DNA of 64,000 nt from Lophium mytilinum (taxonomy: Eukaryota), in contig MU004196.1 of assembly GCA_010093605.1 (NCBI GenBank), positions 22,606 to 86,605 on the forward strand. Direction: 5' to 3'. Both the position numbers and the translations under genes were made by a program. The notes under the pieces are model-generated. The model worked only from the letters and a program-made list of their open reading frames with translations. It ran no database searches and had not been told where the DNA came from. Positions 1 to 34,297 of the stretch are shown piece by piece; the stretch's first letter is position 1, and every line of letters starts with the position of its first letter.

Positions 1-2760
1 ATATAATCCTTTATATATTTCTTTTATACTATATTATAGTAGTTATATATAGTAGTAGTTATACTAATTTTTAAGCGCAAGGCTATTCTTATACTAAACC
101 CTTTAAGTAATTTCTATTCTATACCTGCGCATTCTATAGCCTCTCTATATTTACCTTAAGCTACTACTATAGCTTATAAATTAAATTAAAGTTAATAGAA
201 CGCTATTATATTATATTTTAAGTATTATTCTTTATATATATACTCTATTTTATATTATAGTAGTTAAATGCAGTAGTATAAGGTTATACTGCACGTAATT
301 CTTAAAGGTTAATTTTCTCTATATTAAACTTACTTCTCTCTATCTAACTCTAACCCTCTAGCCTCTATAATATAGAGAACTAAATATTATACTAAATCTA
401 GTATAATTATAAGAAAAAAGCTATATAGAAAGAGAGTACTAAAGTATAGTACTATATAGTAGAAAAGGTAATAAATAACTTAAAGAGGTATAGAAACTAG
501 CTAAATAGAGCTATATAGTTAGAAAGGAATTAAGGCCCTCTTTTTAATTTTCTTCTTTTTCTTAGCTAGGTAACTCTACCCTATATATAGATAATAAGAT
601 AAAAGTATATATACTTACTAAATAGTTCTTTCTACTACTAGTAGAAGCTAATCTATTTAATTTAAAAGAGTTTTAATACCTAGAACTATATACTACCTCT
701 ATAGAAGTTACTATAGAAAATATACTCTTAGTACTAATAGAAATTACGCCGGATAAGGCCTTTAGAATTATAGAAATTATAAATAGATTTCTAAAGAAGT
801 ATAAGATATAACTAGTACTAGTACTTACCTACTTCTTTATAAAGTACCTATATAGAGAATACTACCTCTATCTATTTAAAGAATTAATTATAGTAGTTCT
901 ATATAAACTCTAGAAAGTATTCTATATAATAGTAAAGACCTATAGGCCTATTACGCTACTAGAAATAATAGGTAAGCTATTTAAATATATTATAGCTAAG
1001 AGGCTCTTTAAGATAGTAGAGAAAAAGAGTATACTACTACCTAGCTAAATAGAGGTATAGCTAGAATACTCTATATAGATAGTACTTAAACTTCTTATAG
1101 AATAAATCTATACTATATAGAAAGGAAACCTATAGCTAGTAGTATTACTTCTTAGCCTAGATATATTAGAAGTATTTAATTAAGTCTTATATAAATAAAT
1201 AATATATAATCTATAAATCTAAAGTATACTAGAGTAGATAATAAGGTTTACTAGGTTCTTTCTATAAAACTATATAACTAGGCTCTCTATAGAAAGCTAT
1301 ATAGTAGAACTAATTATAGTTACTATAGGTATTCTATAGGGCTCCTTTCTATTACCTATTCTTTTTCTTTTCTTTACTAGTATACTACTACTAACTCTTT
1401 AAAATAGTAATATAATAGCCTATAGATTTATAAATAATATAAATATTCTTATATATAGTAGAACTATAGAAATAAACTATAGAGCTATTAAGAGAGCCTA
1501 TAATAGATATATAGAATAGGTAAGAAAGTATAGTATAGTATTTATACTAGATAAATATTACCTAATATACTTTATAAGAGCCTATAAAAAAGTTAATTTA
1601 AAAGCTATAGTTAATATATAAGGCTTTATAGAGGGCCCTATAATAGACCTAAAAGTACTTAAAGTATAGGTAGACTTAAAGCTTAAATAGGGCCCGCATA
1701 TTAGTATTTATAAAGAATAAAGCTATAACCTAAATAGAAGTACTTACGCGGCTTATAGTATCTACCTAGGGTGCTAGCTTTAAAAAAGTACGCCTAATAT
1801 ACTTAGTAGTAGTCTAGCCTACTATTATATATAGATATACTATCTAGTATACTATACTAGGTATACTAGAGTAGCTTAGTAAGATAAAAATTAAGTAGCT
1901 TAAAATAGCCTAGAACTAATACCTCTAGAGAATCTTAAAAGTATATAAAACTATAAGTACTATAGTACTAGAATATAAAATATTATATCTACTACTTTAG
2001 CTAAAACTAAAGAAACTTATAGTAGCTTATATAGACTATATATATAAAAGGCTAGTATACTAGTATATTAAAATAGTATATAGTAATATATAAAGGGAAA
2101 TCTATATCTACTATAGGCTACTTATAAGGCTAAAGTATAGCTCTAGCCGCTATAATATACTCTATAACCTTATAGTAAAGGCTATATAGTTATATACTAG
2201 GTATAAAGATAAATTAAATAAAGCCTATAAGCGCTTAAAGTAATTTATAATTAAATATAAATATAAAGAAAGGTAGAAGAAGGTATAGAAGTTCTTTTAT
2301 AAAATAGAATAGTATAGGCTACTAACGCCGGCCCTTAATACTAGATAGAGTAAATAATAGAAGACTATATATAAAGGGCTTATAAAGGTTAAAAGTACTA
2401 TTTTTATAAATCTATAAGTAGAGTATATAGGGCTTAATAGATACCTATACTATATATAAGTGCTAGGCTACCTAATACTAGTTTACCCCTATAGATATAG
2501 CCTCTAATTACTATACTATATAGTAATAAACTATAAGAGGTATATAGAGAGTAAAGGTAAACTATTTAAGAAAGTAAAGACTTAAATATATAAGGAAATA
2601 TATAAAAGTAAAAAGAAATTTAAAGTAGTAGCTAAGTAGTTTCTATAGAAAATAGACCTACTACTCTACCTCTTAATAGTAAGAGAGATAGAAAGAAAGT
2701 AGACCTAGCTCTTCTGCTTAATACTATAGCCCTGCTATTATCTATAGCCTTACTATAACT
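1..2760 (+). mobile_element. RIP-degraded non-LTR (LINE, Tad1-like) retrotransposon ORF2 relic; left end probably outside window
   Basis: RT motifs fall in one frame and in order: YRPITLLEIIGKLF (941-), LSLDILEVFN (1151-), GIL*GSLLLPILFLF (1328-, from GIPQGSPLSPILF), YRFINN (1421-, the xxDD box after G>A), KVLKV*VDLKLK*GPHI (1652-). A C-terminal L*VEYIGLNRYL (~2412) lies in another frame. Most differences fit C>T/G>A changes. Confidence 0.88.
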
Positions 2761-3079
2761 AATAGCCTAGCTATTACTAATAGCCTTACTATTATCTATA
2801 GTCTTACTATTACCCCCTAACTATACTATAGCGGGCCTTAGCGCCCTCTTTTAACTAGTACTTAGTATAGATAGTTAGCTTTAGGTCTCTACTATATACT
2901 CTATAATATATACTTTCTATATACTTTCTATTTCTTATAGCTCTTTTATTTCTAAATAGCCTATCTACTTTATAATAGTATATATACGCGGCTTTCTTTC
3001 TTCTACTATTAGTTAGTTATACTATAAAAGCTTATACTTACTATAAGTAGCTATATACTTTCTACTTATAGACTATAAA

Positions 3080-3649
3080 NNNNNNNNNNNNNNNNNNNNN
3101 NNNNNNNNNNNNNNNNNNNNNNNNNNNNNNNNNNNNNNNNNNNNNNNNNNNNNNNNNNNNNNNNNNNNNNNNNNNNNNNNNNNNNNNNNNNNNNNNNNNN
3201 NNNNNNNNNNNNNNNNNNNNNNNNNNNNNNNNNNNNNNNNNNNNNNNNNNNNNNNNNNNNNNNNNNNNNNNNNNNNNNNNNNNNNNNNNNNNNNNNNNNN
3301 NNNNNNNNNNNNNNNNNNNNNNNNNNNNNNNNNNNNNNNNNNNNNNNNNNNNNNNNNNNNNNNNNNNNNNNNNNNNNNNNNNNNNNNNNNNNNNNNNNNN
3401 NNNNNNNNNNNNNNNNNNNNNNNNNNNNNNNNNNNNNNNNNNNNNNNNNNNNNNNNNNNNNNNNNNNNNNNNNNNNNNNNNNNNNNNNNNNNNNNNNNNN
3501 NNNNNNNNNNNNNNNNNNNNNNNNNNNNNNNNNNNNNNNNNNNNNNNNNNNNNNNNNNNNNNNNNNNNNNNNNNNNNNNNNNNNNNNNNNNNNNNNNNNN
3601 NNNNNNNNNNNNNNNNNNNNNNNNNNNNNNNNNNNNNNNNNNNNNNNNN
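3080..3649. other. Assembly gap (run of N)
   Basis: Continuous N run. Confidence 1.
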
Positions 3650-3944
3650 TTATAATAGAATATTAATATAAGTAATATATTAAATACTAGTACTAATTTA
3701 TTAAATTAGTATATATATATTATTCTTTTAAATAGTTAGTACTTTTATATTCTAGTCTTTTAATTAGCCTAGAAGGGTTCTTTAAGGCCTTTAGTTTACT
3801 TATATAACTTATTTATAATCTTTAAATACTTTTACTAAGTATTTATAATCTATTATATTTTTATTTTTATTCTCTATAATATACTTTCTCTATTTCTTAC
3901 TATAGTTTTTCTACTACTATAAAAAGGGGCTATATAGTATTATA

Positions 3945-4480
3945 ATAGTACTTATTTTAAGCCTTAGCTAGCTTTTTAGCTTTAGCTAGCTTTTTAGCCT
4001 TAAATAGCGCCTATACTACTTCTATTAAAAAGCTTTAATATTAAATAGTATTATATAATTAGTATATAGAGGGGTTAATAAATTAAAATAGCTAGAAAGA
4101 TATAGTAGTAATATAGAGGGGCTAGATTTATTATAGAGAGGCTATAATAAAATAAAAATTTATCTATTTTAGTATATTTATAGATATATAAATATATAAA
4201 TAGTAATATAATAGCCTATATATACTATAGAAAATAGAAAGTATATATAGTAAAATAGATATACTATATAGCTTTACTATAAGTAGCCTTATATATAGCT
4301 TTATATATAGCTTATATATATAGCTTTATTTATAGCTTTATCTATAGCCTTATATATAGCTAAGTATAGGCTATTAAAAATAGTAAAAATATATAATAAA
4401 ATAGAAAAACTATATAGTCTTACTATAAAGTACTAGAGTAGTATTTTAAGCCCTTTAGACTAATTAAAAGACTAAATAAG
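3945..4480 (+). repeat. Direct repeat copy 1 (~500 bp), paired with ~5930-6445
   Basis: Shared strings such as 'tctattaaaaag..taatattaaatagtattatataattagtatata' and 'tatataaatagtaatataatagcctatatatactatagaaaata' recur ~1.98 kb later. Confidence 0.85.
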
Positions 4481-5929
4481 ATAGAGGGTATATATATACT
4501 AAAAAGAGAATATACTTATACTAATTAAAGAAAGTACTAGTACTAGGTCTCTATTTTTAATTTTTAATTATAATATACTAGTATAATTTTAAAAAAAGTT
4601 AAAATATTTTTAAATAAGAAATAATTAGAGTAATAATAATAATTAGTTAAATACTAATATTATAAAACCCTATAAATAACTCTTAACTTTAAAAAAACCT
4701 TAGCCTTATTTAAAGTTTTAACCTTTAAAGAAGCTATAATAGTAGTTTAAATATATTAAGTAAAAATAGTTAGCTTATATTTTTATATAAATAGTTTAAA
4801 TATTACTTAAATAGGCTAGTATAATAGTAGTAGTAAATAACTCTAGTAGATATAATATTCTAAGCTAGTCTCTATTAAGTAAGTAGACTAATAATAGTAT
4901 AGCTAGTAGATAACTCTAAAAATATTCTATTATAATAGTAATAATATTATTTTTACTTTAATAATAAGTACTTTAGAAATAATAAGCTAAATTAGTAGAA
5001 ACTTTTAGGCTATATAATAAAAGTACTACTAATACTAACTACTTCTAGTAAGTAATTATATACTAGTACTATATAAGAGACTTTAAATATATAAAAACTA
5101 TTTATAGTATATTATTATTAAAACTAAATCTTTACCTCTAAAGAAGCTATATAATAAGTAACTTATTATAAAATAAGCTTATACTATAAAATAACCTTAT
5201 ACTATAGAATAAACTTATACTATAAAATAAGTATAGTATTTTTTTTTTTTTTTATAAAATACTAAGTTTATTTCTATAGCCTATTTATTCTATAGCTAAG
5301 CTATATTAGTCTTTTTATTTTTCTAGCTAATTTTATTAAGCTATTACTATACTAGCTTTTAAATAGAAAAGCTACTACTAACTATTACTTTCTACTTTTC
5401 TATCTACCTCTAACTATTACTATAGCTAAACTTTTTATACTTTTTTTTTTTAGTTTTCTATAATCTTTATTTTTTTAGCTATCTAGTCTTCTATTTATAG
5501 TAGTTTTTAGTAATTCTTAGTATTTATCTACTTTATATAGTTTACTATATTATTATAGAATAACTTCTAGATAGAAAAATATATAGTAAGATAGATTAGT
5601 ATAGATATATAAATAGTATATAATAAGTATCTAGGCCTTTTTTTAATTATAGAGAGTAGAGCTTTATTATTTATTATTTCTTCTTTTTATAAAGTCTACT
5701 CTAGATAGTATAATAGTTATAGTCTTATTTTTAATATAATATAATTAAGATTATTTTCTTCTACTTTTTTTTCTTTCTTAGTAAATATATTTTTTACTTT
5801 TATAACTATTTTACTTTCTACTACTATACTATATCTATTACTATATCTTAGTATATCTAAGAAGTATAGCTAGCCTTTTAGTTTAAATAATAAAGTATTA
5901 AAAAAGAAGAGAGTAGTTATAGAGTACTA

Positions 5930-6445
5930 GAATAGTACTAATTTTAGGCTTTAGCCTTAGTCTACTTTTTAGCCTTAGATAGTATATATACTACTTTCTA
6001 TTAAAAAGTTCTAATATTAAATAGTATTATATAATTAGTATATAAAGGCGTTAATAGATTAAAATAGCTAGAAAGATATAGAAATAATATAGAAGAGCTA
6101 GGTTTAATATAAAGAGGCTATAATAAAATAAAATTTAACTATTTTAGTATACTTATAGGTATATAAATATATAAATAGTAATATAATAGCCTATATATAC
6201 TATAGAAAATAAAAAGTATATATAGTAAAATAGATATACTATATAGTTTTACTATAATTATAGTTTTATATATAGCTTTATATATAGCCTATATATATAG
6301 CTTTATTTATAGCTTTAATAAACTACTAGAAATAGTAAAAATATATAATAAAATAGTAAAACTATATAGCTTTACTATAAAATATATATATATAAGTACT
6401 AAAGTAGTATTTTAAGCTTTTAAGCTAATTTAAAAATTAAATAAG
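5930..6445 (+). repeat. Direct repeat copy 2
   Basis: Colinear match to ~3945-4480, differing largely by transitions. Confidence 0.85.
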
Positions 6446-6763
6446 AAAAAGAATATATATTAAATAAGAAGAGAGTATAGAAATATAAAAAAAAAAGTAA
6501 AAATATACTAATTTTCTATAAATATAGTTTAAGTAAATATAAAGTTTACTTTTTAATACTTTATTTTTATATAACTTTATTTTTATAAATATACTTTATA
6601 CTTTATTTTCTATAGTTTATAATACTTATAGCTACTTTATCTTTATACTTATATTAGGTTTTTTTCTATAATCTACTATTATACTATAATATCTTAGGGC
6701 TCTACTCTTTATCTTTTCTTAGTTAAATCTTGTTTTCCCTAGCCTGTCTACGCCCCGATCGTA

Positions 6764-9226
6764 ATGTCCATCCTACCCCCCACCACTCCCTCCCTTAATC
6801 CCCAGTTCCAGGGCCTTAAAGACCTCTTCTTCCACTCCACTCGCATAGTCGGTATATCCCTCTTCCACACCCTCCTTCTCGGCCCGCTCGCCTCCTACGC
6901 CGAGGTCTACTTTCCCGGTCTCGCTCCTGTTTTCTTCTTTTATCACCTCGGCCCTCTCTGGCTCTTTTTCCAAGTTCCAGAAACTCGGCGTCTGTGCCTA
7001 AGTATAGTAGAGTGGATTAAAACCGACGCCCCATGCATAGGATTGCTGGGGGACATCTGGGGAGAGGCCGGGCAAGTGGGCACGTATCTTGTTGCTAGGG
7101 TTCTGATGCGCTATATTTCTCTTTCGGTTCTCAAGTCTCTACTGAAGATAGAATTCTACGCTCTGCTGCTTTCTGGGAGCCTCATCTTATTGTGGATCTA
7201 CCTCGAGCGTGCCAAGCAGGCCATCTTTACGGCCGCCCTCTTTATCGCAGTCCTAATCCCTGGTCTTTCCGTCCTCGCAATCCTTCAAATCCCGAGTGCG
7301 CTGATATACGCGTTCGCATACCTCCAAGTCCACCTCTCCATCTTGTATCGCCAGCTCTGGGCGCCTTTCATCCTATGCGGCGGAATGCGCGACCAAAGCC
7401 ATCATCCGGCTTACTCCTACAACCCTCTCCCGACCACCCGCTCCATTCGCCTGCTCCGCCTCCATCCCCGACGTTCTCTCGAGCTCCACTGCACACTCGA
7501 AACGCACACGCTCGGCCACCCGAGTATTCCAGCTTACGACACAATATCCTACCACTGGGGCCCATCCACCCCCACGCACTCCATCCTCCTCCATTCTCAA
7601 CACACCACAACCCACCTCCTCGTCCCTACAAACTGTTTCAAAGTTCTCTGCGACCGCGCCTCGCTCTTCCAATCCCGTGTTGTTTGGATAGACTTCATCT
7701 GCATCAACCAGCAAGACGCCCAGGAGAAAGGGGTCCAGATCCCACTCATGCGCGAAATCTACAGCCGCGCACGGCGGACGGTGGCGTGGGTGGGCGACTC
7801 CCTCGAAGCAAAGCTAGCGGATAACATGGTGAAGCGGATGTTTATCGATAACGCGAGCACGCCTACACGGGAGGCGGGCATGCAAAGCCTCGTTGAGGCG
7901 AACAGCGGCAAGCGGGACAAGGAGGCAGAAGCGCTGCGGGACATGCTGAAGCAACCATACTTCTTCCGCGTGTGGATGATTCAAGAAATCGCAGTCGCGG
8001 AGAGCGTCGATGTGCGGTACGGGAACGCGTGGTTGGATTGGGATATGCTGGCGTCGGTGTGTGCTGTTATTGGGGATCCGAGGCGGGGGAATCTGGCGGA
8101 GGCGATGATCGTGTTTGACCAAGGGCGCGGGAGGGGCTGGGCGCAGGTGAGCTCGCTCGACCGGTTTAGGGGCGAGGTGCAAGATGGAAGGGAGGTGGGC
8201 CTTGTTCATTTGCTGGGTGAGGCGGGAGCTTTCGGCGCGACTGAGAAGCAAGACCATGTGTTCAGTCTTGTGGCGATCAGCGCCGACAAGGGGCAGGTGG
8301 ACTTGTTCAAGACTTTTGGGAGCGCGCCGGCGGAGGTGTTTGCGCATACGACGAGGTTGTCGCTGGAGCAGGATGAGAGGCTATGCGCGTTGGGCTTTGC
8401 GGGCATCGGGCATGAACGACGAGTTGAAGGGCTGCCGTCTTGGGTGCCGGATTATAGCTGCCTGCCGAAGACGTCACCGTTGCAGAAGACGACAAATAAG
8501 CGCTTCTACCATGCGTCTGGATCGACGAAACCGGAGATTTCGATTGATGTGTCGTTGAATACATTGTCGGTAAGAGTGCTTGTCATCGACCAGATAGCTG
8601 CAGCTTCGACACACTACCTACGCCGCCAACCAAACGAGAACGATGCTTCCGAGTCTTATGCAGCGCAGCGTGGGCCATTCCAAGAGGAAGTGGAGTCCCT
8701 ATCTCGCCGCTGTGCACAGCCTTATCAAGTGGGCACCAGCACTCAGAGCCGTCGAGAGGCTACATGGCGGACCCTGATTGGGAATTGCGTGCATCCAATG
8801 ACGATGCAGGATAGCCTTGTCTACCCAGCTCCAGAATCTCTTGCCAACGGAGACCAAGCAATAAAGCGGCTCATCGATTTTGAGTCTCGCATTAAGGGCT
8901 TAGATCCGAGCGAGCTGCAACGAGAACGCGATACTGCAGTCTCCCTCGAGGAAGATCTGACACTATCGAGTGCTTACGGTGCTGCGGAGGCAGCGTGCTC
9001 ACAGGGGAGACGCTTCGCTGTGACGGAAGGCGGGAGAATGGCGATGGTGCCACCGGGCTCAATGCAGGGCGACTTGGTAGTCGTGATATTGGGAGCTGAG
9101 ATGCCATTCCTGCTGAGGAAAACGGAAAGCGAGTCGATGAAACTGGTTGGCGAGTGTTACGTCCATGGCTTGATGGATGAGGAGGCGATGGGATTGTACG
9201 ATAGTGCTACACTTACATTCACATAG
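6764..9226 (+). CDS. HET-domain (HET-6-like) protein with ~200-aa hydrophobic N-terminus
   Basis: Uninterrupted 820-aa ORF. HET motifs IRLLRL, YDTISYHWG, VWIDFICINQQD..EK..QIPLMREIYSRA, YFFRVWMIQE; also LPSWVPDYS and the HET-6-type tail GRRFAVT..G.MAMVP..GD.VV...G...PFLLR..LVGECYVHGLMD. Confidence 0.92.
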   Translation: MSILPPTTPSLNPQFQGLKDLFFHSTRIVGISLFHTLLLGPLASYAEVYFPGLAPVFFFYHLGPLWLFFQVPETRRLCLSIVEWIKTDAPCIGLLGDIWGEAGQVGTYLVARVLMRYISLSVLKSLLKIEFYALLLSGSLILLWIYLERAKQAIFTAALFIAVLIPGLSVLAILQIPSALIYAFAYLQVHLSILYRQLWAPFILCGGMRDQSHHPAYSYNPLPTTRSIRLLRLHPRRSLELHCTLETHTLGHPSIPAYDTISYHWGPSTPTHSILLHSQHTTTHLLVPTNCFKVLCDRASLFQSRVVWIDFICINQQDAQEKGVQIPLMREIYSRARRTVAWVGDSLEAKLADNMVKRMFIDNASTPTREAGMQSLVEANSGKRDKEAEALRDMLKQPYFFRVWMIQEIAVAESVDVRYGNAWLDWDMLASVCAVIGDPRRGNLAEAMIVFDQGRGRGWAQVSSLDRFRGEVQDGREVGLVHLLGEAGAFGATEKQDHVFSLVAISADKGQVDLFKTFGSAPAEVFAHTTRLSLEQDERLCALGFAGIGHERRVEGLPSWVPDYSCLPKTSPLQKTTNKRFYHASGSTKPEISIDVSLNTLSVRVLVIDQIAAASTHYLRRQPNENDASESYAAQRGPFQEEVESLSRRCAQPYQVGTSTQSRREATWRTLIGNCVHPMTMQDSLVYPAPESLANGDQAIKRLIDFESRIKGLDPSELQRERDTAVSLEEDLTLSSAYGAAEAACSQGRRFAVTEGGRMAMVPPGSMQGDLVVVILGAEMPFLLRKTESESMKLVGECYVHGLMDEEAMGLYDSATLTFT

Positions 9227-23133: not shown

Positions 23134-25111
23134 TTACCAAGTGTTACCTGTAGTCGAGTTACCATAGATAGGGTACCAAACCGAACACCTTGCATCCAAG
23201 GCAGTGGACTGAATCACAGTAAGATTCGCAAACGTGTTCCCCGAGTTCCCCAGCACACCAATATACGCGCTCCCGCTCGCCGTTCCAACCTTGGGCCACG
23301 CCGGATCCGGCCCACCCGTAGGATTCTTCGCAAACGTAGCCCAAGCCGTTTGCAAGTAGCTGCTAAGTGCGATCTCCTGAGCAGTGGCGCCGGACGACGG
23401 ATAGGTCCCAAAGACGAGCGGAATCTCGGTCGTGTGGTAGACGCCGCGGTTTGTGAAGCCGGGAACGTTGCCGTAGTTGGCGGGATAGGAGGCGTTGAAG
23501 TAGTAGCGCCAAACTGGGATACTAGCTTTGGCGTCGTCTACGGTTACGACGGCCGCGGGCTGTGAAGAATGTCAATCGTCGTTCTTAAGGATCAGGACGC
23601 CGACGTGGGGAATTTATGAACGCAAACTTACACACTGATATATCGCCTCTGTCCAGGCCTGTGCAGTCGCGGTATCATCATCTGGAAACACTCCTGGAAC
23701 TGCGTAGGCGGCATCGATAGTGTTGAGGTTTGCACCAGGGGCGTATTGAAAATTACTGGTCACCCATTGTTTCAGCCCACCCGAGACGGCATATGGTAGT
23801 GAAAACAGCCGCCCCTCCTGCGCGTTGGTGCCTTGTAGAACTGGTACCTTGGCAATAGACCCTGCCAGGCGTGCAGCTTCGGGTTTTGCGAGCTCTGTGA
23901 CACCGTCTTGTATGGGAGGGAATTGGAAGAAAGGGGTCGCAGAGGTAGTGGCACTGTAGTCCTTTTCGATGGCGGTTTTGATGTCGGTTGCAGCTTTTGT
24001 GCGCATGCATTTAATTATCGGCGAGGACGATTGGCAGTTCATGAGTTTGACGAGGGAGTCCCAGTAACCCGTCGAGTTGTTGGCTCCGCCTGGGGTGACG
24101 GAAGAAGTGCCACTTTGCATGATGGCAGCGCGGAACGGAGTGTTGCTACCCATGGTAGTCACTAGACGGTCGACTGATGTTGCTCCAGAGCTAAAGAGAT
24201 GGTTTAGACATGCGTTCCATAACGTAGAAGCTTGTTTGCATAGTGGGCATACCTTTCACCGAAAATCGTTACTTTGGCCGGGTCGCCTCCAAAGGCCGCA
24301 ATGTTCTTTTGAACCCCTGGGAGTCAAGGATTAGTAAAACAACCGCAGTGTTACGTTTACGTGGCAGTGACTCACATTGGAGGGCGAATCGTTGATCCAG
24401 GAAGCCAATGTTCCATTCGGTTTGGTCAGTGATATCGCCGGAATGAGGAAAGCCAAAGACTTGAACACATGTTAATGAGAAGATTTTTCTTCTTATCAGG
24501 GATGTTTGTTACCATTGGTACGATAGTTTGGGGCCACGACAATAACATCTTGATGAGCCGCAAAGCTAGATCCATCATACCACGGATGCGAAGCGGTGCC
24601 ATACGTCAGTCCTCCGCCATAAATCCAGAACATGACTGCCTTTCCGGTAGCCCCTGAGCTGGGAACGTAGACATTGAGGTAAAGACAATCTTCGCTTTCT
24701 ACAGGGGCAGGAGTATTGAATAGCTGCATGACCTGCGTGCGATTTGGGGTGTAAGGCGAATCTTGTTCAAGATTAGCTGCATACTTTGGAGGTACGCTTA
24801 GCCCTAAATGAAGATCTGGACATACCTATGAACTGCTGCATGCAGGAGTTGCTCCACGCATTAGCTTGTCTTGTAGTATAGGTGGGAACAGCCTGCGGTG
24901 GTGCGAAACGCAAAGAGCTGGTTGGAATGGCTGCATAAGGAACGCCTAGGAACTTGTTCACAGATGCGGTAGCGCTGGGTAGAGTAGTCGTCGTCCCAAT
25001 GAGGACCCCATCGGAAACCGTTACAGTTGGAAGAGCTCGCCCACAACCAGGGAAAGCAGCTAAAACACAAGTGAGAAGAAACGACGATTGAACCATCGGA
25101 TGGACCTTCAT
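23134..25111 (-). CDS. Secreted type-B carboxylesterase (cholinesterase-like fold), multi-exon
   Basis: Signal-peptide-like N-terminus, [44 protein letters not shown] (intron inside the Ser codon), [20 protein letters not shown]. Start could instead be ATG 25096. Confidence 0.93.
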
Positions 25112-25879
25112 AATGAACCAATATATGTCAATTGAATGTTTTCCCAGAAAATGAAAGCAGAAAGTCAAGTTCGAAAGGTGTGCTGATGGTGTTTGTTGAA
25201 GTATTCATAGATTCATTAGCACTATATATATTCCCGACTTGTACTTTCAGAGGGTGATGTAGTAGTCGGAGATATAAACAGATCATCGAATCCTTCTCGT
25301 ATAGCTACCAGGCGTCGGCCAACCTGGCCTCGATCCTTCGCGTATGAATCGAAGCCCAGACCTCGAGCCTCAAAGAGTTCCCCTTCATTAGCCATAGGCA
25401 TTTACCAAACACGTACCTGAAGTCAGCGAATTTTGAACGGTGGGGGCTAAACGACCGGGAAAAAGTACACGACCGACATCCAACTCCAGGGGTTTGATAT
25501 TTCCGACCGGGAAAAATCACATTACGAAGTTTGAGGAATCTTAAAAATACACTACCCCCTGGTACTGTTGCAAGTTACTGACGTTGCAAATTTCCTTTCC
25601 TAGTACGTGCTGCCTCCATACTATCGACTTCCTATGCTAGGGATTGGAAGAATGAATGGAGCGGTGACCATTCAATTTTGCCCAAAATGGATATACTATT
25701 TTGCAGCCTCTGTCATTGGCCGAATATTTCGTTTCAATGAAACTACTAACCAGGATACAGGTTACGAACCCCCTAGTAGCACGCTTGACATATGAGAGAA
25801 GACATGACTGCACCCCCATCGCATATTATTAGAAGACCTAAGTCCTAGTCTAGCCGTTGCTATCTTCTCCATCCTAGAA

Positions 25880-28800
25880 TCACAGACGCTCTCCAACTTC
25901 CCCGCCTCTCCTTCTCAACTGCTCTACCTTCCTTGCCCTCTCTTTCCGCTCATCTACCGACAAATCCCCACCAATAGCCCCATCCTGCATCCTCCAAGCT
26001 TCCTGCAGATGCTCAAGAGCATTCCTCCACTGTCCCTGTCCCTGTGCAATCTCGCTTCTAATCTCCAGAAGATCCGCCTTGTTGATGACATCGTTACTCG
26101 CGTCATTTAGCTCCATCACAAAAGCCTCATCAACGAGTCTTTCCGCCTCTTTCCAATCCTTCTTCTTGATCGCAGCACGGATACCCTTATTCACCAAAAT
26201 CATGTGCCTAAACTGCGCCGACAACGACAAAATCTCAAAGGGGATGTCTTCCCACGACTTTTGATTCTCTGGATATTCTTCACTGCCTTCGTCGGCCAAT
26301 ATGAACCGATGATACGCCATTCTTTCTTTGAAAACTTCCTTCTTCTCTTGCAAGCGATGAGGAGGGTCGAGTGCGAGTCGGAGACCAAATTCGCAGTGTT
26401 CAAAAGCGCGATTCATCTTTTCCTTCTGCTCCGGCAGGAGGCTTGCTGGCATATGCGCCCTGGAATCATCGATGATGGATTGAGCGATTTTGTTGAATTT
26501 GGGGGATTGGCTAGAGTGAAGACGGTGGTAATGCCCTGCAAGATTGGCGGCGAGGTTCATTGCAAGGCCTCGTAAAGCGAAAATACCCATTTCGGCTGTT
26601 TCTTCCTCTTCGGATCGTGGTTCTGGAGTAGTTTGGGCCCAAGACTTGAGTCTCCCGAAAACGGAGTCGAGAGATGGCACAAGAGGCGCTGGCTTCTCCT
26701 TGGCGACAATCTTGAGAGTGTCGATTTCTGCGAGAATACGAGTAAGGGCCAGCTCCCAGAGAACGGCAACGATTCGCAGTCGTCCTGGATCCTTGAGTAC
26801 ACCGCGCTGTATAACGCTGACAAGTCGAAAGAGGCACACGAGTTGCAAGGAGTCGGATGTATTGCTCTGCAATCCAATCAAGGCGGCAGCGACGAAATTG
26901 CCAAACTCAGCATGCAACTCCTCCCGAGGTTGTGTCCAGGTCGGGCTGTAGTAGATTTTGGACCAAGGCCATTGTTTCGTGCGATAGCAGTAGTAGTAGA
27001 CGAACCCCTGCTTTATCGACTCAGTAATCCTTAGCACGTTTTGGTCATAGCCCGGTTGCGCCCTCATCATTATGGGGACCAGGGGGTGTAGAGCCATAGC
27101 GCCCCTGTGGTAACTACCCTGATCCCCTTCGATCGTGGTCGTATTTGCGGGTATGTTCTCTAAGAACCCTGCCTCCTTCAACTTTGATAGGAATCTTGTG
27201 CAGCCGGACTCCAGTATTTCACTGACTATGGGTATTGCGGGAAAATCGATTTCCTCATAGGCAACGATGATATTCGCCATGTCGGCTTTTGGTTTCGGTA
27301 CCTCGTCTTCGCTGGAAGCAGCCACAAGACGCATCAATTCGATCATCATTCTCATGTTTTCAGTCATGTCGTCCATGTCCACTCCAGCGTTCTCAAGCAT
27401 CTCGAGCGTGGCCCTCGCTTTTTGTTGCGGAGTGTCACCCATGAGCTTTTGTGCAGAGATACTCCACAGCTGGACAAACTTGCCCAAGTCGTCCACTGGC
27501 AATACGTGTTGGAAGCAAGCGAAGACGACGGGTGTGAAACCATCTCCCAAACGTTCTGGCATCAGCTCGTCCGCGATGTGATCAAGCTGCAAAACGCTAC
27601 GCAAGCCCTCCTTTCCTCTCGCTTCCGATCGGTTCAACATGATATGTTTGCCACTCAACATGTCAAAATAGTACTCTTTAGGGCTTTTCAGTATGCATAG
27701 CCCATCTTGAGCCAGGAGCCGAATCGCAAGTGGGTTTCCGGCGGTGATATTCACGACCTGTTCCAAATACTGGAAGTCTTCCTCGGACTTATAGTCTCCC
27801 ACGTTCATCAGCTCCTGGGCACCCTTCAATATACCGTAAACGACTTGCGTTCCGGGAACGGTGCGAAGGCCAGATAGTCGATGAGGCACTGTTGCTGCGC
27901 CGAGCCATTTTTCTGGCCGCCGGGAAGCGATAACCACGAGAGCCTTTGTTTTGGCGAGGGCTTTTATGAACTTGATGAAGACGCCGTACATTCGATTCAT
28001 GTTTACTGCTTCGAGGCGATCTAGAATAATGACGCATCGGTGTTTGTTTAGATGTGCATAGAGCTTCTCCGGCACCACGGGAGACTTGATGCCAGTAAAA
28101 TAACCCTGTAATTGAGAGCAAAGAGCATTCACATCAAAAGGATCCGTGGGCAATTGGATGTGTATGGCATCTTTTACAAGGCCTGTGATTGCCCACCAGC
28201 GGCGGAGATGCGCCAGCAATGTCGTCTTACCAACTCCGGGCGAGCCGGTAAGGAGAACGGGTTTACTTCCGATTAGCAGCGCTGACTCAAGGTGCATGAT
28301 ATCTGTTTCCCGCCCATACGGAAACAAGCGTCGCAGGTCTTGTTCCTCTTCTAGACCTTCGAGCTCCGGGAAAGTCTCTGGGAATGGCCTGTTAATTGAG
28401 GGATCCAAGTAAACGACTGGCACGATTGAATCCGCAACCTTGACGACGCTCCCTACCTTGGTCGTTCGATTCGAGTTGCGAACCATTGCTTGTCGTGCAA
28501 GAGATGCTGCCGCCTCAAGCGGCAATTTGTGCTCCACCAGCCCTTGATAGAGCGCTTCAGTGAAGACTTCCACGCTTCGGTCTGCAATCGTGAAGCTCAT
28601 GGCCACGACGACAGGTACCCCGGCATGGACGAATGCACTCGCAATATTTGTCTCCGGACTTGATCCACACGCAGATCGACACGCATTCAGTACTACCTGG
28701 CCCACTGCTCGTTCTTGAAGCAACTCGCCAACTTCTGCGGCAGTGCGATAATCAGACCGCAACTTGAGATACTCAGACCCAGCCTCGTGCTTGACAAACT

Positions 28801-29542
28801 TCAAAAACACGGTGCCACTTGCCGTGTCCTCCACACCGTGCATATCGAAATGAAGCACATCAAAGTAACCTGGCTCTTGTGACTCAAGGTGCGTCTTGAG
28901 GGCTTCGAAAGTGCCTGGACGAACGATCTCCACGCTGATGGTGTTGTCATACCGCTCAGATGCCTCCACAATGAGCCGGGATACGAGTCGTGGAGCCACA
29001 TCGTTATCTTCACCGGAGCGAGCAGTTACAATGAGTATACGAAGGGCATTCGTGAATTTGGCTCTGGCAGTGGACGGATTTGGCTCTGCGTGACCTTGTT
29101 CTCGACGGATGACCCGGATAATATTTACTGAAATAGGACGATGTGAGGGTCGCCATAGTTCCAAGCGTTCTAGTACTTCCCAGAAGATGACCGCGGTTGA
29201 GCCTTGCTGGTCTGGCTCCTCGACATTAATAACGAGTGGCTTGTTTAATTCCGATGGAGGTAAGAATTCGGCGAAGTTGAGTGAGGATACCAACGCCTTG
29301 CCGTAAGCTACAAGAGCAGAGAACGCTTTCGACGCACGCTCGCTATTGAATGGGTCGAGCTCTGCGTAGTCCTCAAGGTACCAGCGGAACTCCTCTAACG
29401 ACGACGTTGACAATATGGGGATTTCCCGCTCTATGCGGCGGCTAAGTTCATGGTCCACGATCAGGCAGGTGGTCGCATCATAGGAGGTAGACGCTAGAGA
29501 TTTTTGAGTTAATAGAAATGGAGTGATTGTAATAACCGTCAT
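25880..29542 (-). CDS. NLR-like protein: CHAT (caspase-like) protease + NB-ARC-type STAND NTPase + helical/TPR-like C-terminus
   Basis: Uninterrupted 1220-aa ORF. CHAT dyad VLHFDMHG (~28835-28858) and VVLNACRS (~28673-28696), then GVPVVVAMSF..F...LY. NB-ARC: YGRE, GSPGVGKTT (~28220-28246), IILDRLE, VIASRR, GNPLAI, LHPLV. TPR-like end ..SEIAQGQGQWRNALEHLQEAWRM. Confidence 0.9.
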   Translation of the reverse strand: MTVITITPFLLTQKSLASTSYDATTCLIVDHELSRRIEREIPILSTSSLEEFRWYLEDYAELDPFNSERASKAFSALVAYGKALVSSLNFAEFLPPSELNKPLVINVEEPDQQGSTAVIFWEVLERLELWRPSHRPISVNIIRVIRREQGHAEPNPSTARAKFTNALRILIVTARSGEDNDVAPRLVSRLIVEASERYDNTISVEIVRPGTFEALKTHLESQEPGYFDVLHFDMHGVEDTASGTVFLKFVKHEAGSEYLKLRSDYRTAAEVGELLQERAVGQVVLNACRSACGSSPETNIASAFVHAGVPVVVAMSFTIADRSVEVFTEALYQGLVEHKLPLEAAASLARQAMVRNSNRTTKVGSVVKVADSIVPVVYLDPSINRPFPETFPELEGLEEEQDLRRLFPYGRETDIMHLESALLIGSKPVLLTGSPGVGKTTLLAHLRRWWAITGLVKDAIHIQLPTDPFDVNALCSQLQGYFTGIKSPVVPEKLYAHLNKHRCVIILDRLEAVNMNRMYGVFIKFIKALAKTKALVVIASRRPEKWLGAATVPHRLSGLRTVPGTQVVYGILKGAQELMNVGDYKSEEDFQYLEQVVNITAGNPLAIRLLAQDGLCILKSPKEYYFDMLSGKHIMLNRSEARGKEGLRSVLQLDHIADELMPERLGDGFTPVVFACFQHVLPVDDLGKFVQLWSISAQKLMGDTPQQKARATLEMLENAGVDMDDMTENMRMMIELMRLVAASSEDEVPKPKADMANIIVAYEEIDFPAIPIVSEILESGCTRFLSKLKEAGFLENIPANTTTIEGDQGSYHRGAMALHPLVPIMMRAQPGYDQNVLRITESIKQGFVYYYCYRTKQWPWSKIYYSPTWTQPREELHAEFGNFVAAALIGLQSNTSDSLQLVCLFRLVSVIQRGVLKDPGRLRIVAVLWELALTRILAEIDTLKIVAKEKPAPLVPSLDSVFGRLKSWAQTTPEPRSEEEETAEMGIFALRGLAMNLAANLAGHYHRLHSSQSPKFNKIAQSIIDDSRAHMPASLLPEQKEKMNRAFEHCEFGLRLALDPPHRLQEKKEVFKERMAYHRFILADEGSEEYPENQKSWEDIPFEILSLSAQFRHMILVNKGIRAAIKKKDWKEAERLVDEAFVMELNDASNDVINKADLLEIRSEIAQGQGQWRNALEHLQEAWRMQDGAIGGDLSVDERKERARKVEQLRRRGGEVGERL

Positions 29543-29983
29543 TCTTAACTGGATATTGAGTGAAGTTCGGCGGTGTTAGACTTGTGTTCTTGCTACCCGT
29601 ATTGATACTTTAGACGCTAGATGTGAAGAAGGTGTCTGGGCAAGAGAGATGCGACAAAAACCTAGGTATAAAGCATGGTAAATATTCTAGACCTCGCTTG
29701 ATACTTCCCGAAGACGCGAAGGCTGCATAGATCGATGAGGCTGAGCTGCGAGTTCAGCTCTGACGATTCCGCGATAGCCGTGGACTTGGCCTGCGGCTGA
29801 GTCTGGGCCAAGGTTGCTGCGGCACAGAACTTGCTTTTTCTACTACGTACCTCCTAGGCAGCCATGAAGCGACATAGCGAGGCGAGAAGGTGTTAAAGTA
29901 TCTCTGAACTCATCACCTCCAGGACGTCCCGAACTTCAACCCTACCACATCCCAATCACGTGATCCTACCCACTTTCAATATT

Positions 29984-30871
29984 ATGGCCGACACTCCTTT
30001 CTTCTACCTGCTCGACCCAGAGCGCTTGATCCCCACCTCGGATATCGCCCTCTGGCTCGGTCGAATTGTCAAGCATTATGCAGAACCTGACGCTTCATAC
30101 ACGCCTTCGGACCCCTCCCCATTCATCACGACGCCCATCTCCGCAAACGCTCTCGTCAATACCAGTAGTGTTCTCTCAGGCTCCAACAATACATCCCTAT
30201 CCGCTGCTCTCGCCAAATCCGCCTCCGTCGCGGCGTCCAAATCAAGTTCAAGCGGCACAGATTTCACCACCCCAGAAATATTAAGCGTCCGAATGCAAAA
30301 GTACGACACGATTTTCGATTCAATGCGACAGAATGATGAGGTCAAAGCCGACTTGGGCCGTATGTTAACGCCGGGAGGAAAACCAGCATTCATGATCGTT
30401 GCGGTACTGATATGGACCGACGCGAGCTTCACGGATGTTCGGTCCCTCGAGTCTTCTGTATCGGGCAGCGTGACGGCGCCCTTAACTGCGACTGTCGCGG
30501 CCACGACGGGTGTGGTTGTTCCTGGAATCAATCCTAAGCTGAAGGGTGAGAAAGGAAGCAGTACCTCGCGGAAGCTAGCTGGATTGAGTCTCGGGAGCCA
30601 CATCTTCGCGTTGCAGTACAAGGCTGTGCGTAGACCGGCATGGGCTATCGGCCGGAGCTTCACGCCTAAATTAGAGGATAAGGGCCCACGAGTGGAGGGT
30701 GTAAAGAGATTCGCGGGTAGATTGGAGGAAGAGAGTAAGACGGAAGATGGGCCGGTGGAGGTGGAAATGGATGAAGACCTTGTAAGCTGGACAGATGTAT
30801 TGGACGAGGATGAAGGCGAATTGGAGACGGAGGAGCTGGGAGAACTAGCACTTGCTTTCACAGGGAGTTGA
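29984..30871 (+). CDS. Fungal gasdermin-like pore-forming protein (RCD-1/HET-Q1-like) with acidic C-terminal tail
   Basis: Intronless 295 aa. N-terminal FYLL..P..WLGRIV...P; Ser/Thr-rich beta-hairpin-like segment; helix ending DEVK; PAFMIVAVLI; second alternating segment SVSGSVTAP..; HIFALQYKAV; then a ~50-aa D/E-rich tail. This motif order matches my recollection of fungal gasdermins, and the gene neighbours a protease. Confidence 0.78.
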   Translation: MADTPFFYLLDPERLIPTSDIALWLGRIVKHYAEPDASYTPSDPSPFITTPISANALVNTSSVLSGSNNTSLSAALAKSASVAASKSSSSGTDFTTPEILSVRMQKYDTIFDSMRQNDEVKADLGRMLTPGGKPAFMIVAVLIWTDASFTDVRSLESSVSGSVTAPLTATVAATTGVVVPGINPKLKGEKGSSTSRKLAGLSLGSHIFALQYKAVRRPAWAIGRSFTPKLEDKGPRVEGVKRFAGRLEEESKTEDGPVEVEMDEDLVSWTDVLDEDEGELETEELGELALAFTGS

Positions 30872-31219
30872 GACTATCAGTCGAAGAAGGTCGTTAGACA
30901 CCTAATTGAAAGACATGGGCGGCCCACATGAGAGTAGTGAACAATGTAACGTAAAGCCCTACCACTGCCGCTACCCTGTTTTCATCACCGATAGCTAGGT
31001 TTCAGGCTAGGCTTTTACATAGCGACTATATCGTCATTGCGTCACATGAATTAACCCTTTTGAGCACAACATAGAAAGAAAAGCAAAAGTTGGGGAAAGA
31101 AGGTTTGTTCTATAGATTTATCGAATGCGGATGGACTAGCTATGCTAATCGTATCATCCATTGTCAGGTGATGCTAGGAAGTTCGTATGGACGCACTAAC
31201 TACGCTCCTTGATAAGTAT

Positions 31220-32197
31220 TCATACATCAAGTGAGTGAATGATAGTCTCGACGTGTTCATCCCAGCCATCATAGAGATCACGGTAGACATCATCATCAGA
31301 GTCTTCTGAATCATCAGAATCATCTGATTGATCAGTAGAGTCTTCGATGTTGAAGATCCGACGACACATAGGGCAGTTCTTGTGCTCTTCAACCCACGTT
31401 CCCAAGCAATTTGCCCCAAAGATGTGCCCGCATAGCTTCGTTCGTACTGGAGCCTCCTCAATGTAATCATCCTTGCAGATTGGGCAGATTTCATCCGGGT
31501 CGACATCACAGTTCTCAACTATGCTGTCCCAGATCTGCTCCTGCCTGCGGCGAACTCGTTCTCGCCGGTCAGCGATCCGAAGGGCAGTAGCACGATAGTG
31601 ATGGAAGCGTAACGTAGCTTCTTCAGCCGAGTCGTTAAAGGCGTTGGACAATCCATGCGCAATGCGCATTTCAGGGCTGTTGGCTGGCAGCTGGGCCTGA
31701 TCGTCACCCAGCTCGCCAATCAACCGGAACAGATATCTGATCCCCTGTGCTTGGATCATGCGTCCAATTTCCAACGAACTTGGTTCCCAGATCTGTTCAA
31801 CACCCAGAGTAATCTCATCATCAGGATCAGGAAGCCCGATGATGCGGCGAACCACACGCGCTCGGTCTCGCACTGACTGAATAAAGGGCTCTAGGTCGGC
31901 AATGGATGGAAAGACAGCTTCTGCGGCAGGGTGCTGGCGGAGAACAGAGGCTCGGATGTTGTGGACTCGGGCGGGGGAGTCTGGTTCGTCGCTCTCGAAT
32001 GCGACCCAGTAGAACGACCTGTGAAACGAGTTGAAAGCGCGCAGCATCTGCCCACGGAGTACCCAGGGATCTACGTTGTCACGTTCTTCGTAGCCCTCCA
32101 GCCTTAGGTAGTTGTACAGGATGTCGAGATTCAGGTCCGGGAGGGGGTTTTGACCAATTGTGGGATCAACTGGAGGGTCAGGAGCGAAGTTCTCCAT
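31220..32197 (-). CDS. RING-finger protein (variant CGHxFGxxC) with acidic tail
   Basis: CPIC-x14-CGHIFGANC-x10-CPMCR; intronless 325 aa. Confidence 0.85.
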   Translation of the reverse strand: MENFAPDPPVDPTIGQNPLPDLNLDILYNYLRLEGYEERDNVDPWVLRGQMLRAFNSFHRSFYWVAFESDEPDSPARVHNIRASVLRQHPAAEAVFPSIADLEPFIQSVRDRARVVRRIIGLPDPDDEITLGVEQIWEPSSLEIGRMIQAQGIRYLFRLIGELGDDQAQLPANSPEMRIAHGLSNAFNDSAEEATLRFHHYRATALRIADRRERVRRRQEQIWDSIVENCDVDPDEICPICKDDYIEEAPVRTKLCGHIFGANCLGTWVEEHKNCPMCRRIFNIEDSTDQSDDSDDSEDSDDDVYRDLYDGWDEHVETIIHSLDV

Positions 32198-32722: not shown

Positions 32723-34297
32723 ATGCCACTCGATTACCTGGGCTCGAATTCCGAGACTCCTGGGTCTTCGTCTCGACGGCGCCAGGTCCGCGAGTTCACG
32801 CCAGCCCGAACAGAGTTGCCCGCCGGGTCTTCTCGGCCTCGCAACGAAGCCTCAGCTTCAGCATCTCGACAACAAGAAGCCTCTTGGGGCTTCGAGGGAC
32901 TGAGTCTAGGACACGGGCGCTCAACGCACAGCTCCACCCCACGTGGTCAAACCCATGCCCCCACGTCTCGTGCTCCATCGACGAATCGTACTGCCACGTC
33001 TCGTACTCCCGCAACGACCCGTACTCCAGCCACGTCTCGTACCACAGCCCAAAAAGACTCCTCTTCGGGCTTCGAGTCGCGTCGTCTAGGACCTCACGGG
33101 GACTCCACGCACAGCGCTACCCCACGACAGACCCATACCCAAGGGACGACCCGTACTCAAGCCACATCTCGTACTCCAGCAACGAATCGTACTGAGTCCA
33201 CGACCCGTACTCAAGCTACATCTCGTACTTCAGCAACGAATCGTACTGAGTCCACGTCTCGTACTCAAGCTACGTCTCGTAACACAACCACGTCTCGTAC
33301 CACGGCCACGTCTCATAGCTTGCCCGACTTCGAGACTTTGATTCAGAAACATCTCGTTCCCGCAACCGTCAAAGCGGGGGATGACGAGTGCATAATCTGC
33401 ACCAGCGAATTTGACACCGGCAAGCACCAGGCAGTCAAAGTTAAGAGCAATCCCGCCTGCGGCCATTACTGGGGTCGTGAGTGCATTCTCATCTGGTTTC
33501 ACTCACAACGCGAGACGTCTAATCGTTGCCCAGTTTGCCGCCAAGAGCTCTTCAAGATCAATGATGCGATGATCAAGCATTCTCGAGCCAACATGGACGG
33601 AATCCTGCCGGAGGAAGACTGGCTGCGACAGGAGCACGGCGTCGTGCGGTCGCGGTCGCTGATAGATCGACCGCAGTCGACTCCAGAGTGGGAGAAGCGT
33701 CTTAAGCGCCAAACTTGCGAAGAGCATGCGTCGTACCTGCGAGAAGTTGGCCGCCCTCATGAGATCCCTTCGCGATGGCGACCTGCACCAGACGCCGCAA
33801 AGGCGCGTTGGCTTCTCCAAGAAGGGCGAGACCTGATTCGCCACTTCAATAATCGGAAGATCCTTTTCTTCAATTATGATGGAGACAAGGTGATTGACCC
33901 AGATGCTCCCATCGGTCGTCGTGTAGCCTTTACCTCTACACCCCACGGTCGGCCATGGAGTGGCGAGCCTACGTCCCGTACCACGTCCCGTTCCACGTCC
34001 CGTACCACGTCCCGCACTGCTACTACGTCGCTTCGTTCTGACCCTGTTGCTTCTGTATCGCGTCCTAGCTACTGGGCCGGTACTGACGTTCCAATAGCGG
34101 ATGATGCGTGGGTCCGACGTCTCAAAGCTCAACGGCACGCGGAGATAGACTGGTATGGGGTAGAGCCGGATGCCGACAAGAAACGATCCCTGCTTGCAGA
34201 AGGCAAGGCATTGGTCAAAGTCTTCGGTAAGGAAGCATTCGTCTTCGACTATAGTGGCAATCAGATCATAGTCCCAGATGCTTCTCAACTTCGTTAG
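32723..34297 (+). CDS. RING-finger protein with S/T/R-rich repeats and a duplicated C-terminal module
   Basis: ATG 32723 (MPLDYL) follows TATAAAA at 32563; CIIC..CGHYWGREC..W..CPVCRQELF. Confidence 0.85.
   Translation: MPLDYLGSNSETPGSSSRRRQVREFTPARTELPAGSSRPRNEASASASRQQEASWGFEGLSLGHGRSTHSSTPRGQTHAPTSRAPSTNRTATSRTPATTRTPATSRTTAQKDSSSGFESRRLGPHGDSTHSATPRQTHTQGTTRTQATSRTPATNRTESTTRTQATSRTSATNRTESTSRTQATSRNTTTSRTTATSHSLPDFETLIQKHLVPATVKAGDDECIICTSEFDTGKHQAVKVKSNPACGHYWGRECILIWFHSQRETSNRCPVCRQELFKINDAMIKHSRANMDGILPEEDWLRQEHGVVRSRSLIDRPQSTPEWEKRLKRQTCEEHASYLREVGRPHEIPSRWRPAPDAAKARWLLQEGRDLIRHFNNRKILFFNYDGDKVIDPDAPIGRRVAFTSTPHGRPWSGEPTSRTTSRSTSRTTSRTATTSLRSDPVASVSRPSYWAGTDVPIADDAWVRRLKAQRHAEIDWYGVEPDADKKRSLLAEGKALVKVFGKEAFVFDYSGNQIIVPDASQLR
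33146..33280 (+). repeat. In-frame 54-bp tandem repeat (~2.5 copies; TTRTQATSRTPATNRTES)
   Basis: Units start at 33146, 33200 and 33254. Confidence 0.9.

Follow-up and report, generated by a model that had tools for sequence, protein, structure and literature searches.

Does a divergent gene pair of the fungus Lophium mytilinum bring together, at one locus, a pore-forming gasdermin and the protease that would set it free? The question is raised by two neighbouring open reading frames (ORFs) in a stretch of 64,000 nucleotides of contig MU004196.1 (assembly GCA_010093605.1), hereafter called the window. The larger ORF encodes a CHAT caspase-like protease domain fused to a nucleoside triphosphatase (NTPase) of the STAND type, resembling a NOD-like receptor (NLR), and the smaller one encodes a gasdermin-like protein. 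Our analysis makes it likely that the pair is a regulated-cell-death module of the het-Q1/het-Q2 kind, in which a gasdermin-fold executioner and an NLR-like activator that combines all its functions in one protein are encoded head to head.

In the window translation, the large ORF (25880-29542, minus strand) corresponds to 1220 amino acids (aa) and the small ORF (29984-30871, plus strand) to 295 aa. Their start codons are divergent and 441 bp apart (29543-29983), in agreement with the original prediction, made from the letters of the window alone, of two divergent ORFs with starts ~440 bp apart. The features of the pair on which the argument depends are the following:

25880..29542, minus strand: gene of the CHAT-STAND (NLR-like) protein of 1220 aa; its deposited model, BU16DRAFT_621394, starts slightly differently.
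28949..29542, minus strand: N-terminal region, residues 1-198, with a W-Y-L-E-D-Y...P-F motif common to fungal and bacterial relatives; probably the front of CHAT.
28466..28948, minus strand: CHAT caspase-like protease domain, residues 199-359 (Pfam E 2.6e-15, 57.1 bits, above the curated cutoff of 24).
28838-28840, minus strand: codon of the catalytic His235, predicted from motif conservation.
28679-28681, minus strand: codon of the catalytic Cys288, predicted in the same way.
27683..28318, minus strand: STAND P-loop NTPase module, residues ~409-620 (AAA_16 E 1.2e-7; invariant columns), which also holds a GRE motif and a G-N-P-L-A motif with P604.
28223-28246, minus strand: Walker A.
28019-28021, minus strand: Walker B Asp508.
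25883..27682, minus strand: C-terminal region, residues 621-1220, with no Pfam family; presumed sensor part, possibly TPR-like.
29543..29983, no strand: spacer of 441 bp between the divergent start codons; presumed shared promoter region.
29984..30871, plus strand: gasdermin-like gene, 295 aa, identified by profile and fold.
29990..30715, plus strand: pore-forming gasdermin core, residues 3-244, delimited by fold prediction and its match to the RCD-1 pore.
30710..30715, plus strand: F243-A244 junction, a conserved aromatic and small residue closing the core; comparison with HET-Q1 F238 makes it the candidate cleavage region.
30716..30868, plus strand: acidic C-terminal tail, residues 245-295, conserved in the family; presumed inhibitory fragment.

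The two genes had also been read as intronless, a claim that agrees with the uninterrupted ORFs, with the deposited gene model and with gap-free contigs of one public sequencing run (X1), whose kind is uncertain and was guessed to be RNA. One contig of this run, of 1,170 nt, lies on 29926-31095 without gaps or joints, and four more lie gap-free on 25874-29675, where they cover 3,440 nt of the large ORF (3,663 nt in all). Should the run be RNA, neither the small gene nor these 3,440 nt would carry an intron, whereas a DNA run says nothing on this point. No contig covers 25600-25873, 29676-29925 or three short stretches inside the large ORF, and the contigs were used neither to place transcript ends nor to gauge expression. 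Word depth in the run was 281 on the gasdermin contig versus 3.8-6.6 on the four CHAT-NLR contigs, contig depth being a quantity that cannot rank genes. With regard to the starts, 29926-29983 holds no ATG upstream of the small ORF. The deposited L. mytilinum protein BU16DRAFT_621394 (1212 aa) is 100% identical to the large ORF over 1204 residues and differs only in its first residues, the ORF starting with M-T-V-I-T-I and the deposited model having another N-terminus in place of the first ~16 codons (29495-29542). Because fungal and bacterial homologues begin with M-x-(V/I)-I-T-(I/V), the start at 29542 looks right.

To the first part of the question, whether the small gene encodes a gasdermin, profile and fold comparisons give a consistent answer. 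Alone, the small protein matched no Pfam family (E ≤ 0.1) and, in a single-sequence search, no PDB sequence. A word-based search returned 15 relatives, all unannotated, fungal where named and including Fusarium members, and an HMMER profile search returned 872 representatives of the family at E ≤ 1e-3. An alignment of 104 family members was used for a sequence profile, for an AlphaFold2 (AF2) model and for the statistics of the tail. Compared with the PDB, this profile retrieved five distinct sequences at E ≤ 1, and all five are fungal gasdermins, among them RCD-1-1 (E 1.1e-6), the HET-Q1 pore (8.7e-4) and RCD-1-2 (0.016). The AF2 model built with the 104 sequences reached a predicted local distance difference test (pLDDT) score of 84.4 and a predicted template-modelling (pTM) score of 0.72, compared with a pLDDT of 46.4 when 13 sequences were used, and it displays two long predicted beta-hairpins (residues 53-103 and 135-216). 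Every one of the 10 Foldseek matches at E ≤ 1e-3 is a gasdermin. VIA-align, which is independent of Foldseek, likewise placed gasdermins at ranks 1-11 in a search of 48,161 chains, with the first other fold at Z 6.2; the RCD-1 pore scored Z 12.8 (211 aligned residues, root-mean-square deviation 4.5, model residues 4-244) and the RCD-1-1 crystal structure Z 11.8. Since the profile matches, the Foldseek matches and the top-ranking VIA-align matches are all gasdermins, the gasdermin fold is established as far as prediction allows. The gasdermin-like character that the original prediction had ascribed to this ORF from its motif order is thereby upheld on profile and fold, and the comparison of 29984-30871 with RCD-1 by AlphaFold and Foldseek that it had proposed yielded the gasdermin fold, with the RCD-1 pore as the best match by VIA-align. 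One relative (P0004), 76% identical to the window gasdermin, is just 197 aa long, its N-terminal part being absent.

Residues 245-295 extend past this core and form the acidic tail that had been noticed from the translation, with ~20 of the last 51 residues counted as D or E. It is laid out as a low-confidence linker (249-262), a conserved L/M-D-E-D...W..D motif and a terminal hairpin, and of the 104 family members, 103 have a tail with net acidic charge, the median tail length being 51 aa. The residues at the end of the core are also constrained, position 243 being F, Y or L in 92/104 members and position 244 being G, A or S in 91/104. HET-Q1 of Podospora anserina is cut after F238, just beyond its core, freeing a fragment of ~5 kDa, and the F/Y/L junction of the window family lies at the position equivalent to F238, with a short tail after the core in both. 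By this analogy, F243-A244 is a candidate cleavage region and the tail 245-295 is presumed to be the inhibitory fragment of the gasdermin.

The large protein, for its part, shows the STAND layout, with a central P-loop NTPase between an N-terminal effector and a C-terminal region. Its CHAT match (PF12770) begins at position 119 of the 289 positions of the profile, and the sequence of residues 1-198 indicates that they probably form the front part of the domain. We aligned the window protein with 18 homologues (19 proteins, three of whose rows are N-terminally truncated). N286, A287, C288 and S290 of the Cys motif L-N-A-C are invariant in all 19, and the His motif H-F-D-M-H-G (H235-G236) is kept as H-F-D-x-H-G in every homologue row that covers the region, so that the intact caspase-type dyad (H235-G236 and A287-C288) read earlier from the sequence is confirmed alongside the CHAT match. 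The nucleotide-binding positions are invariant as well: G433, G436 and K439 of Walker A, D508 of Walker B, G410-R411 and the GxP proline P604. Among the Pfam models of this module, AAA_16 matches residues 409-538 with 32.9 bits against a cutoff of 32.6, and NACHT (PF05729) matches with E 5.6e-4 and 20.2 bits, under its curated cutoff of 26.7.

Two labels of the original prediction were not confirmed by the profile hidden Markov model (HMM) scan of 25880-29542 that it had suggested for CHAT, NB-ARC and TPR domains. CHAT was found, but NB-ARC (PF00931) gave no match at E ≤ 0.1, against the full NB-ARC motif set that had been described, and neither TPR nor any other repeat family matched at that threshold, against the TPR-like end. 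Among the 19 aligned proteins (E ≤ 1e-3), NACHT matches 19, CHAT 18, NB-ARC 8 and TPR families only 6, and the protein ids and the homologue listing suggest that these six are the bacterial ones. The large protein's C-terminal end aligns with the TPR part of bacterial relatives, and an orthologue from Mytilinidion, 81% identical to residues 515-1217, carries the UniRef name 'TPR-like protein', both of which hint weakly at a TPR-like C-terminal half. As NB-ARC and the repeats are unmatched and NACHT stays under its cutoff, 'CHAT-STAND NTPase, NLR-like' is the safe label. The orthologue just mentioned (P0208, BDZ99DRAFT_27724 of Mytilinidion resinicola, in the sister genus) covers residues 515-1217 and is without CHAT and P-loop; it and the shortened gasdermin relative reflect either gene decay or poor gene models.

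Is such a pair, then, a recognised arrangement? The survey of Clavé et al. 2022 counts 1,884 het-Q1 homologues in fungi. For 80% of these a protease gene lies at most 10 kb away, and 353 have a CHAT gene as neighbour. According to its cluster definition, a gasdermin within 10 kb of an S8 or CHAT gene, the window pair with its starts 441 bp apart is a cluster of this type. The survey also showed that in Podospora the gasdermin Q1-6 is processed by the CHAT domain of its neighbour Q2L-6 (TPR-CHAT), with a barrage as the outcome, and the Fig. 6 legend presents a CHAT-NLR-to-gasdermin model drawn beside the NLRC4-caspase-1-GSDMD pathway. A 2025 review, in the part available, states that only a TPR-bearing CHAT protease has been tested and names sensor activation as the main open question, and in the literature that we searched we found no functional study of an NLR-fused CHAT in any eukaryote. 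The earlier statement that no functional characterisation of this architecture was known still holds, within these searches, for the NLR-fused form, whereas the architecture had been surveyed, a model of it drawn and a TPR-CHAT pair tested by Clavé et al. 2022.

In that survey, Dataset S1 contains three rows for L. mytilinum and Dataset S3 counts three gasdermins. Their partners have the architectures Patatin-S8, TPR-S8 and CVNH>TPR-CHAT; in the third of these, CHAT occupies the extreme C-terminus and the N-terminal sequence differs. Because none of these three is the window protein, the window pair is a fourth Lophium pair that this listing does not include. The first 11 of the 83 'P-loop' rows of Dataset S2 comprise 5 with CHAT+P-loop_NTPase and 6 with S8+P-loop+beta-propeller. 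Inspection by eye shows clear homology to the large protein, around GRE/Walker A and GxP, in four of the CHAT rows, which come from Fusarium fujikuroi, F. mangiferae and two strains of F. proliferatum, and three of these proteins (CCT65492.1, CVK98824.1 and CVL06007.1) each adjoin a het-Q1 homologue in Dataset S1, with neighbouring accession numbers. The F. fujikuroi pair CCT65491.1/CCT65492.1 and its F. proliferatum and F. mangiferae counterparts thus share with Lophium a CHAT+P-loop_NTPase protein of similar layout beside a het-Q1 homologue; they differ in belonging to Sordariomycetes, whereas Lophium is a member of Dothideomycetes, and in lacking, by eye, the His-Gly of the dyad. A further Fusarium CHAT+P-loop protein, CVL11809.1, retains both dyad motifs by eye.

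How might these two proteins act together? In the mechanism that we propose, the C-terminal region of the large protein would sense a cue, and nucleotide-dependent oligomerisation of the NTPase would bring CHAT domains together and make them active. CHAT would then cut the gasdermin just past its core, either close to F243-A244 or within the acidic linker, removing the inhibitory tail, and the freed core would oligomerise into membrane pores and bring about cell death. Possible settings for such a module are allorecognition, defence or development. The parts of this proposal differ in strength. We are highly confident of the domain and protein identities of both genes. The whole chain from sensing through oligomerisation, CHAT activation and cleavage to pores we judge to be probable, and within it we infer the cleavage of the neighbouring gasdermin by CHAT from analogy. 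That a single polypeptide would take the parts of NLR, adaptor and caspase, with oligomerisation driven by nucleoside triphosphate activating its own protease and this protease freeing the adjacent gasdermin, has in our judgement only slightly better than an even chance of being right. Of the inflammasome-like reading given in the original prediction, the gasdermin fold of the small gene and the fusion of CHAT to a STAND NTPase are supported, the head-to-head pairing fits the published cluster type, and the NB-ARC and TPR labels are not confirmed.

Several known systems can be set beside this chain. One is Q1-6/Q2L-6 of P. anserina (Pa_6_6615/Pa_6_6610), an adjacent gasdermin and CHAT gene where, according to the 2022 survey, CHAT processes the gasdermin and leads to localised cell death; Q2L-6 has N-terminal TPRs, a C-terminal CHAT and no NTPase, whereas in Lophium, as known from sequence, an N-terminal CHAT is followed by the STAND NTPase. 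HET-Q1/HET-Q2 of the same species provides the removal of a short C-terminal inhibitory fragment by the product of a linked gene, but HET-Q2 is a subtilisin (S8) and not a CHAT-NLR, and a single genome does not carry both genes, since het-Q1 and het-Q2 occupy one locus as idiomorphs. In the mammalian NLR-caspase-1-GSDMD inflammasome, a STAND sensor and a caspase-clan protease are likewise found with a gasdermin that is freed from an inhibitory C-terminal part. There are differences: in Lophium sensor and protease are one polypeptide without CARD/PYD adaptors, the protease belongs to the CHAT clade and is not a caspase proper, and the presumed inhibitory part is a tail of ~51 aa instead of a folded domain. 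Genetic evidence for CHAT proteases in cell death or incompatibility comes from two other fungi, each source being available in part. At Aspergillus fumigatus hetB (PMC11138114), a CHAT protease stands opposite a short unannotated protein, and in Coccidioides (preprint 10.64898/2026.10.27.762035, 2026) knocking out het-q1 and knocking out the CHAT gene next to it, a het-q1/het-q2-like pair, phenocopy each other. The Coccidioides protease has an adjacent gasdermin, whereas the hetB locus is idiomorphic and its short partner carries no annotation, and no NLR-type NTPase is stated for either in the available parts.

Several results weigh against this proposal, and we consider them together here with the alternatives to which they lend support. 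None of the 104 members of the small-protein family matches any Pfam family (E ≤ 0.01), so that gasdermin membership rests on profile and fold evidence. Consistent with this, none of 13 close relatives matches a gasdermin model even at E ≤ 10, the Pfam gasdermin models being Bact_GSDM and the animal Gasdermin models. A match by atlas features to a cluster in which 13% of members are Bact_GSDM (PF26164) is a lead only. The missing Pfam match is a gap in model coverage and not a defining feature of the superfamily. The Foldseek TM-scores of the AF2 model to RCD-1 are moderate (0.51/0.61), and these moderate scores, together with pore states being the best fold matches, are due to AF2 having modelled extended hairpins. 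As to linkage, a search for loci of the gasdermin's own relatives gave one metagenome contig of 1,594 bp, too short to reveal neighbours, and a region-restricted word-based homology search with the large protein did not retrieve the Fusarium CHAT+P-loop proteins, whose homology is thus recognised by eye only. Moreover, in the available Dataset S2 sequences, CCT65492.1, CVK98824.1, CVL06007.1 and CZR48481.1 read, by eye, Leu-Leu at the catalytic His-Gly and A-P-C in place of N-A-C. With sequences that lack the His-Gly, proteolysis may not be universal in the lineage, and these Fusarium proteins may represent a catalytically altered branch that is still linked to gasdermins.

The bacterial relatives of the large protein add to this side of the account. 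We kept 80 loci (L002-L081), mostly cyanobacterial, of 373 confirmed stretches, and considered flanking ORFs of at least 150 aa within 2 kb. Their CHAT-NACHT/NB-ARC-TPR proteins have the same domain order as the Lophium protein at 20-21% identity and share with it the N-terminal motif, the dyad and the P-loop; they differ in their clear TPR arrays and in having no gasdermin detected alongside. None of the 182 flanking ORFs matches the fungal gasdermin family HMM, and none of the 112 among them with 180-400 aa matches a Pfam gasdermin family (E ≤ 1e-4). On these two counts, taken from the 2-kb flanks of the 80 loci, a bacterial origin of the pair as a unit was rejected. The cyanobacterial relatives are widespread and set among unrelated housekeeping genes. 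An ORF family of ~150 aa recurs in 20 of the bacterial loci. In 17 cases it lies on the opposite strand, immediately past where the match ends, and these ORFs may merely be a spurious reading of the TPR region in antisense.

The alternative that survives best accepts the gasdermin as real and denies its activation by the protease next door: it would be engaged instead by an RCD-1-like interaction with an incompatible allelic variant or by another protease, such as one of the S8 enzymes of the HET-Q2 kind in the same genome, with the CHAT-NLR acting on other substrates. In its favour, we note that the closest solved relative by both profile and fold is Neurospora crassa RCD-1 (PDB 8jyz, 8jyx, 8jyy), with RCD-1-1 as the best profile match and RCD-1 as the best fold match, and that RCD-1 is reportedly activated without cleavage. 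Lophium moreover has at least three further pairs of gasdermin and protease, in two of which the protease is of the S8 type, and the bacterial CHAT-STAND relatives work without an adjacent detectable gasdermin. Nevertheless, RCD-1-1 ends where the core of the window protein ends (chain residues 2-257 versus model residues 4-244) and so is without the conserved ~51-aa acidic tail, the junction at the equivalent of the HET-Q1 site is conserved, and the 441-bp divergent spacer is common to both genes. Podospora HET-Q2 furthermore left the other two gasdermins of that species unprocessed (Clavé et al. 2022), which argues for specificity within cognate pairs. Taken together, we consider activation by something other than the neighbour unlikely, at about a one-in-six level of belief.

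A coincidental adjacency, or a decaying module in which one or both genes are non-functional in this strain, is improbable in our view. It could draw on the Mytilinidion orthologue annotated without CHAT and P-loop and on the 76%-identical gasdermin relative of only 197 aa, but both Lophium ORFs are uninterrupted along their 1220 and 295 aa with all catalytic and nucleotide-binding motifs intact, and the contigs of the public run, though its kind is only guessed, are gap-free over both genes. Least probable of all is a non-proteolytic control of the gasdermin by the NLR-like protein, for example by binding or sequestering the tail after oligomerisation with CHAT as mainly an interaction module, which would suit the four Fusarium relatives that read Leu-Leu at the His-Gly and are still gasdermin-adjacent (by eye, in the available dataset rows) but sits poorly with a Cys motif intact in Lophium and in all aligned homologues, with a His motif present wherever the region exists, and with the processing observed for the one fungal CHAT/gasdermin pair that has been examined biochemically (Clavé et al. 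2022).

The surroundings of the pair contain several other genes. Just downstream of the gasdermin lie two RING-finger genes, at 31220-32197 (minus strand; zf-RING_2 E 3.1e-12) and at 32723-34297 (plus strand; E 4e-8), the latter with long Thr/Ser/Arg-rich repeats; the window translation and Pfam gave no evidence that they belong to the module. Just past the 3' end of the CHAT-NLR gene, 23614-25111 (minus strand) contains a COesterase carboxylesterase gene of at least two ORFs, presumably split by introns. Further away, positions 1-6000 of the window form a very AT-rich block (GC content 0.18-0.25, versus ~0.5 elsewhere), which looks like repeat DNA degraded by repeat-induced point mutation (RIP) at the edge of a gene-bearing region; within it, 3047-3705 is low-complexity sequence, as all six frames are open. 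Adjoining this block, an 827-aa stop-to-stop ORF at 6743-9226 (plus strand) carries a HET (heterokaryon incompatibility) domain (E 1.7e-25) and is a second gene of the cell-death/incompatibility type in the window.

What pyroptosis is to animals, gasdermin/protease clusters are considered to be to fungi and bacteria. The type of pair found here was described in the 2022 survey, and the locus adds a clean example and no new principle. What it offers is a tractable candidate for the NLR-fused CHAT class, with uninterrupted ORFs, a short and presumably shared promoter region, an intact dyad and P-loop and a candidate junction. As the 2022 survey does not list this pair and Pfam does not recognise its gasdermin, the repertoire of fungal gasdermins is in part overlooked by published surveys and by Pfam. 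With a family of at least 872 representatives that escapes Pfam detection, fungal gasdermin-protease modules may be more numerous than counted at present. If the single-chain reading is true, the roles of NLR, adaptor and caspase would reside in one polypeptide that acts on the gasdermin encoded next to it.

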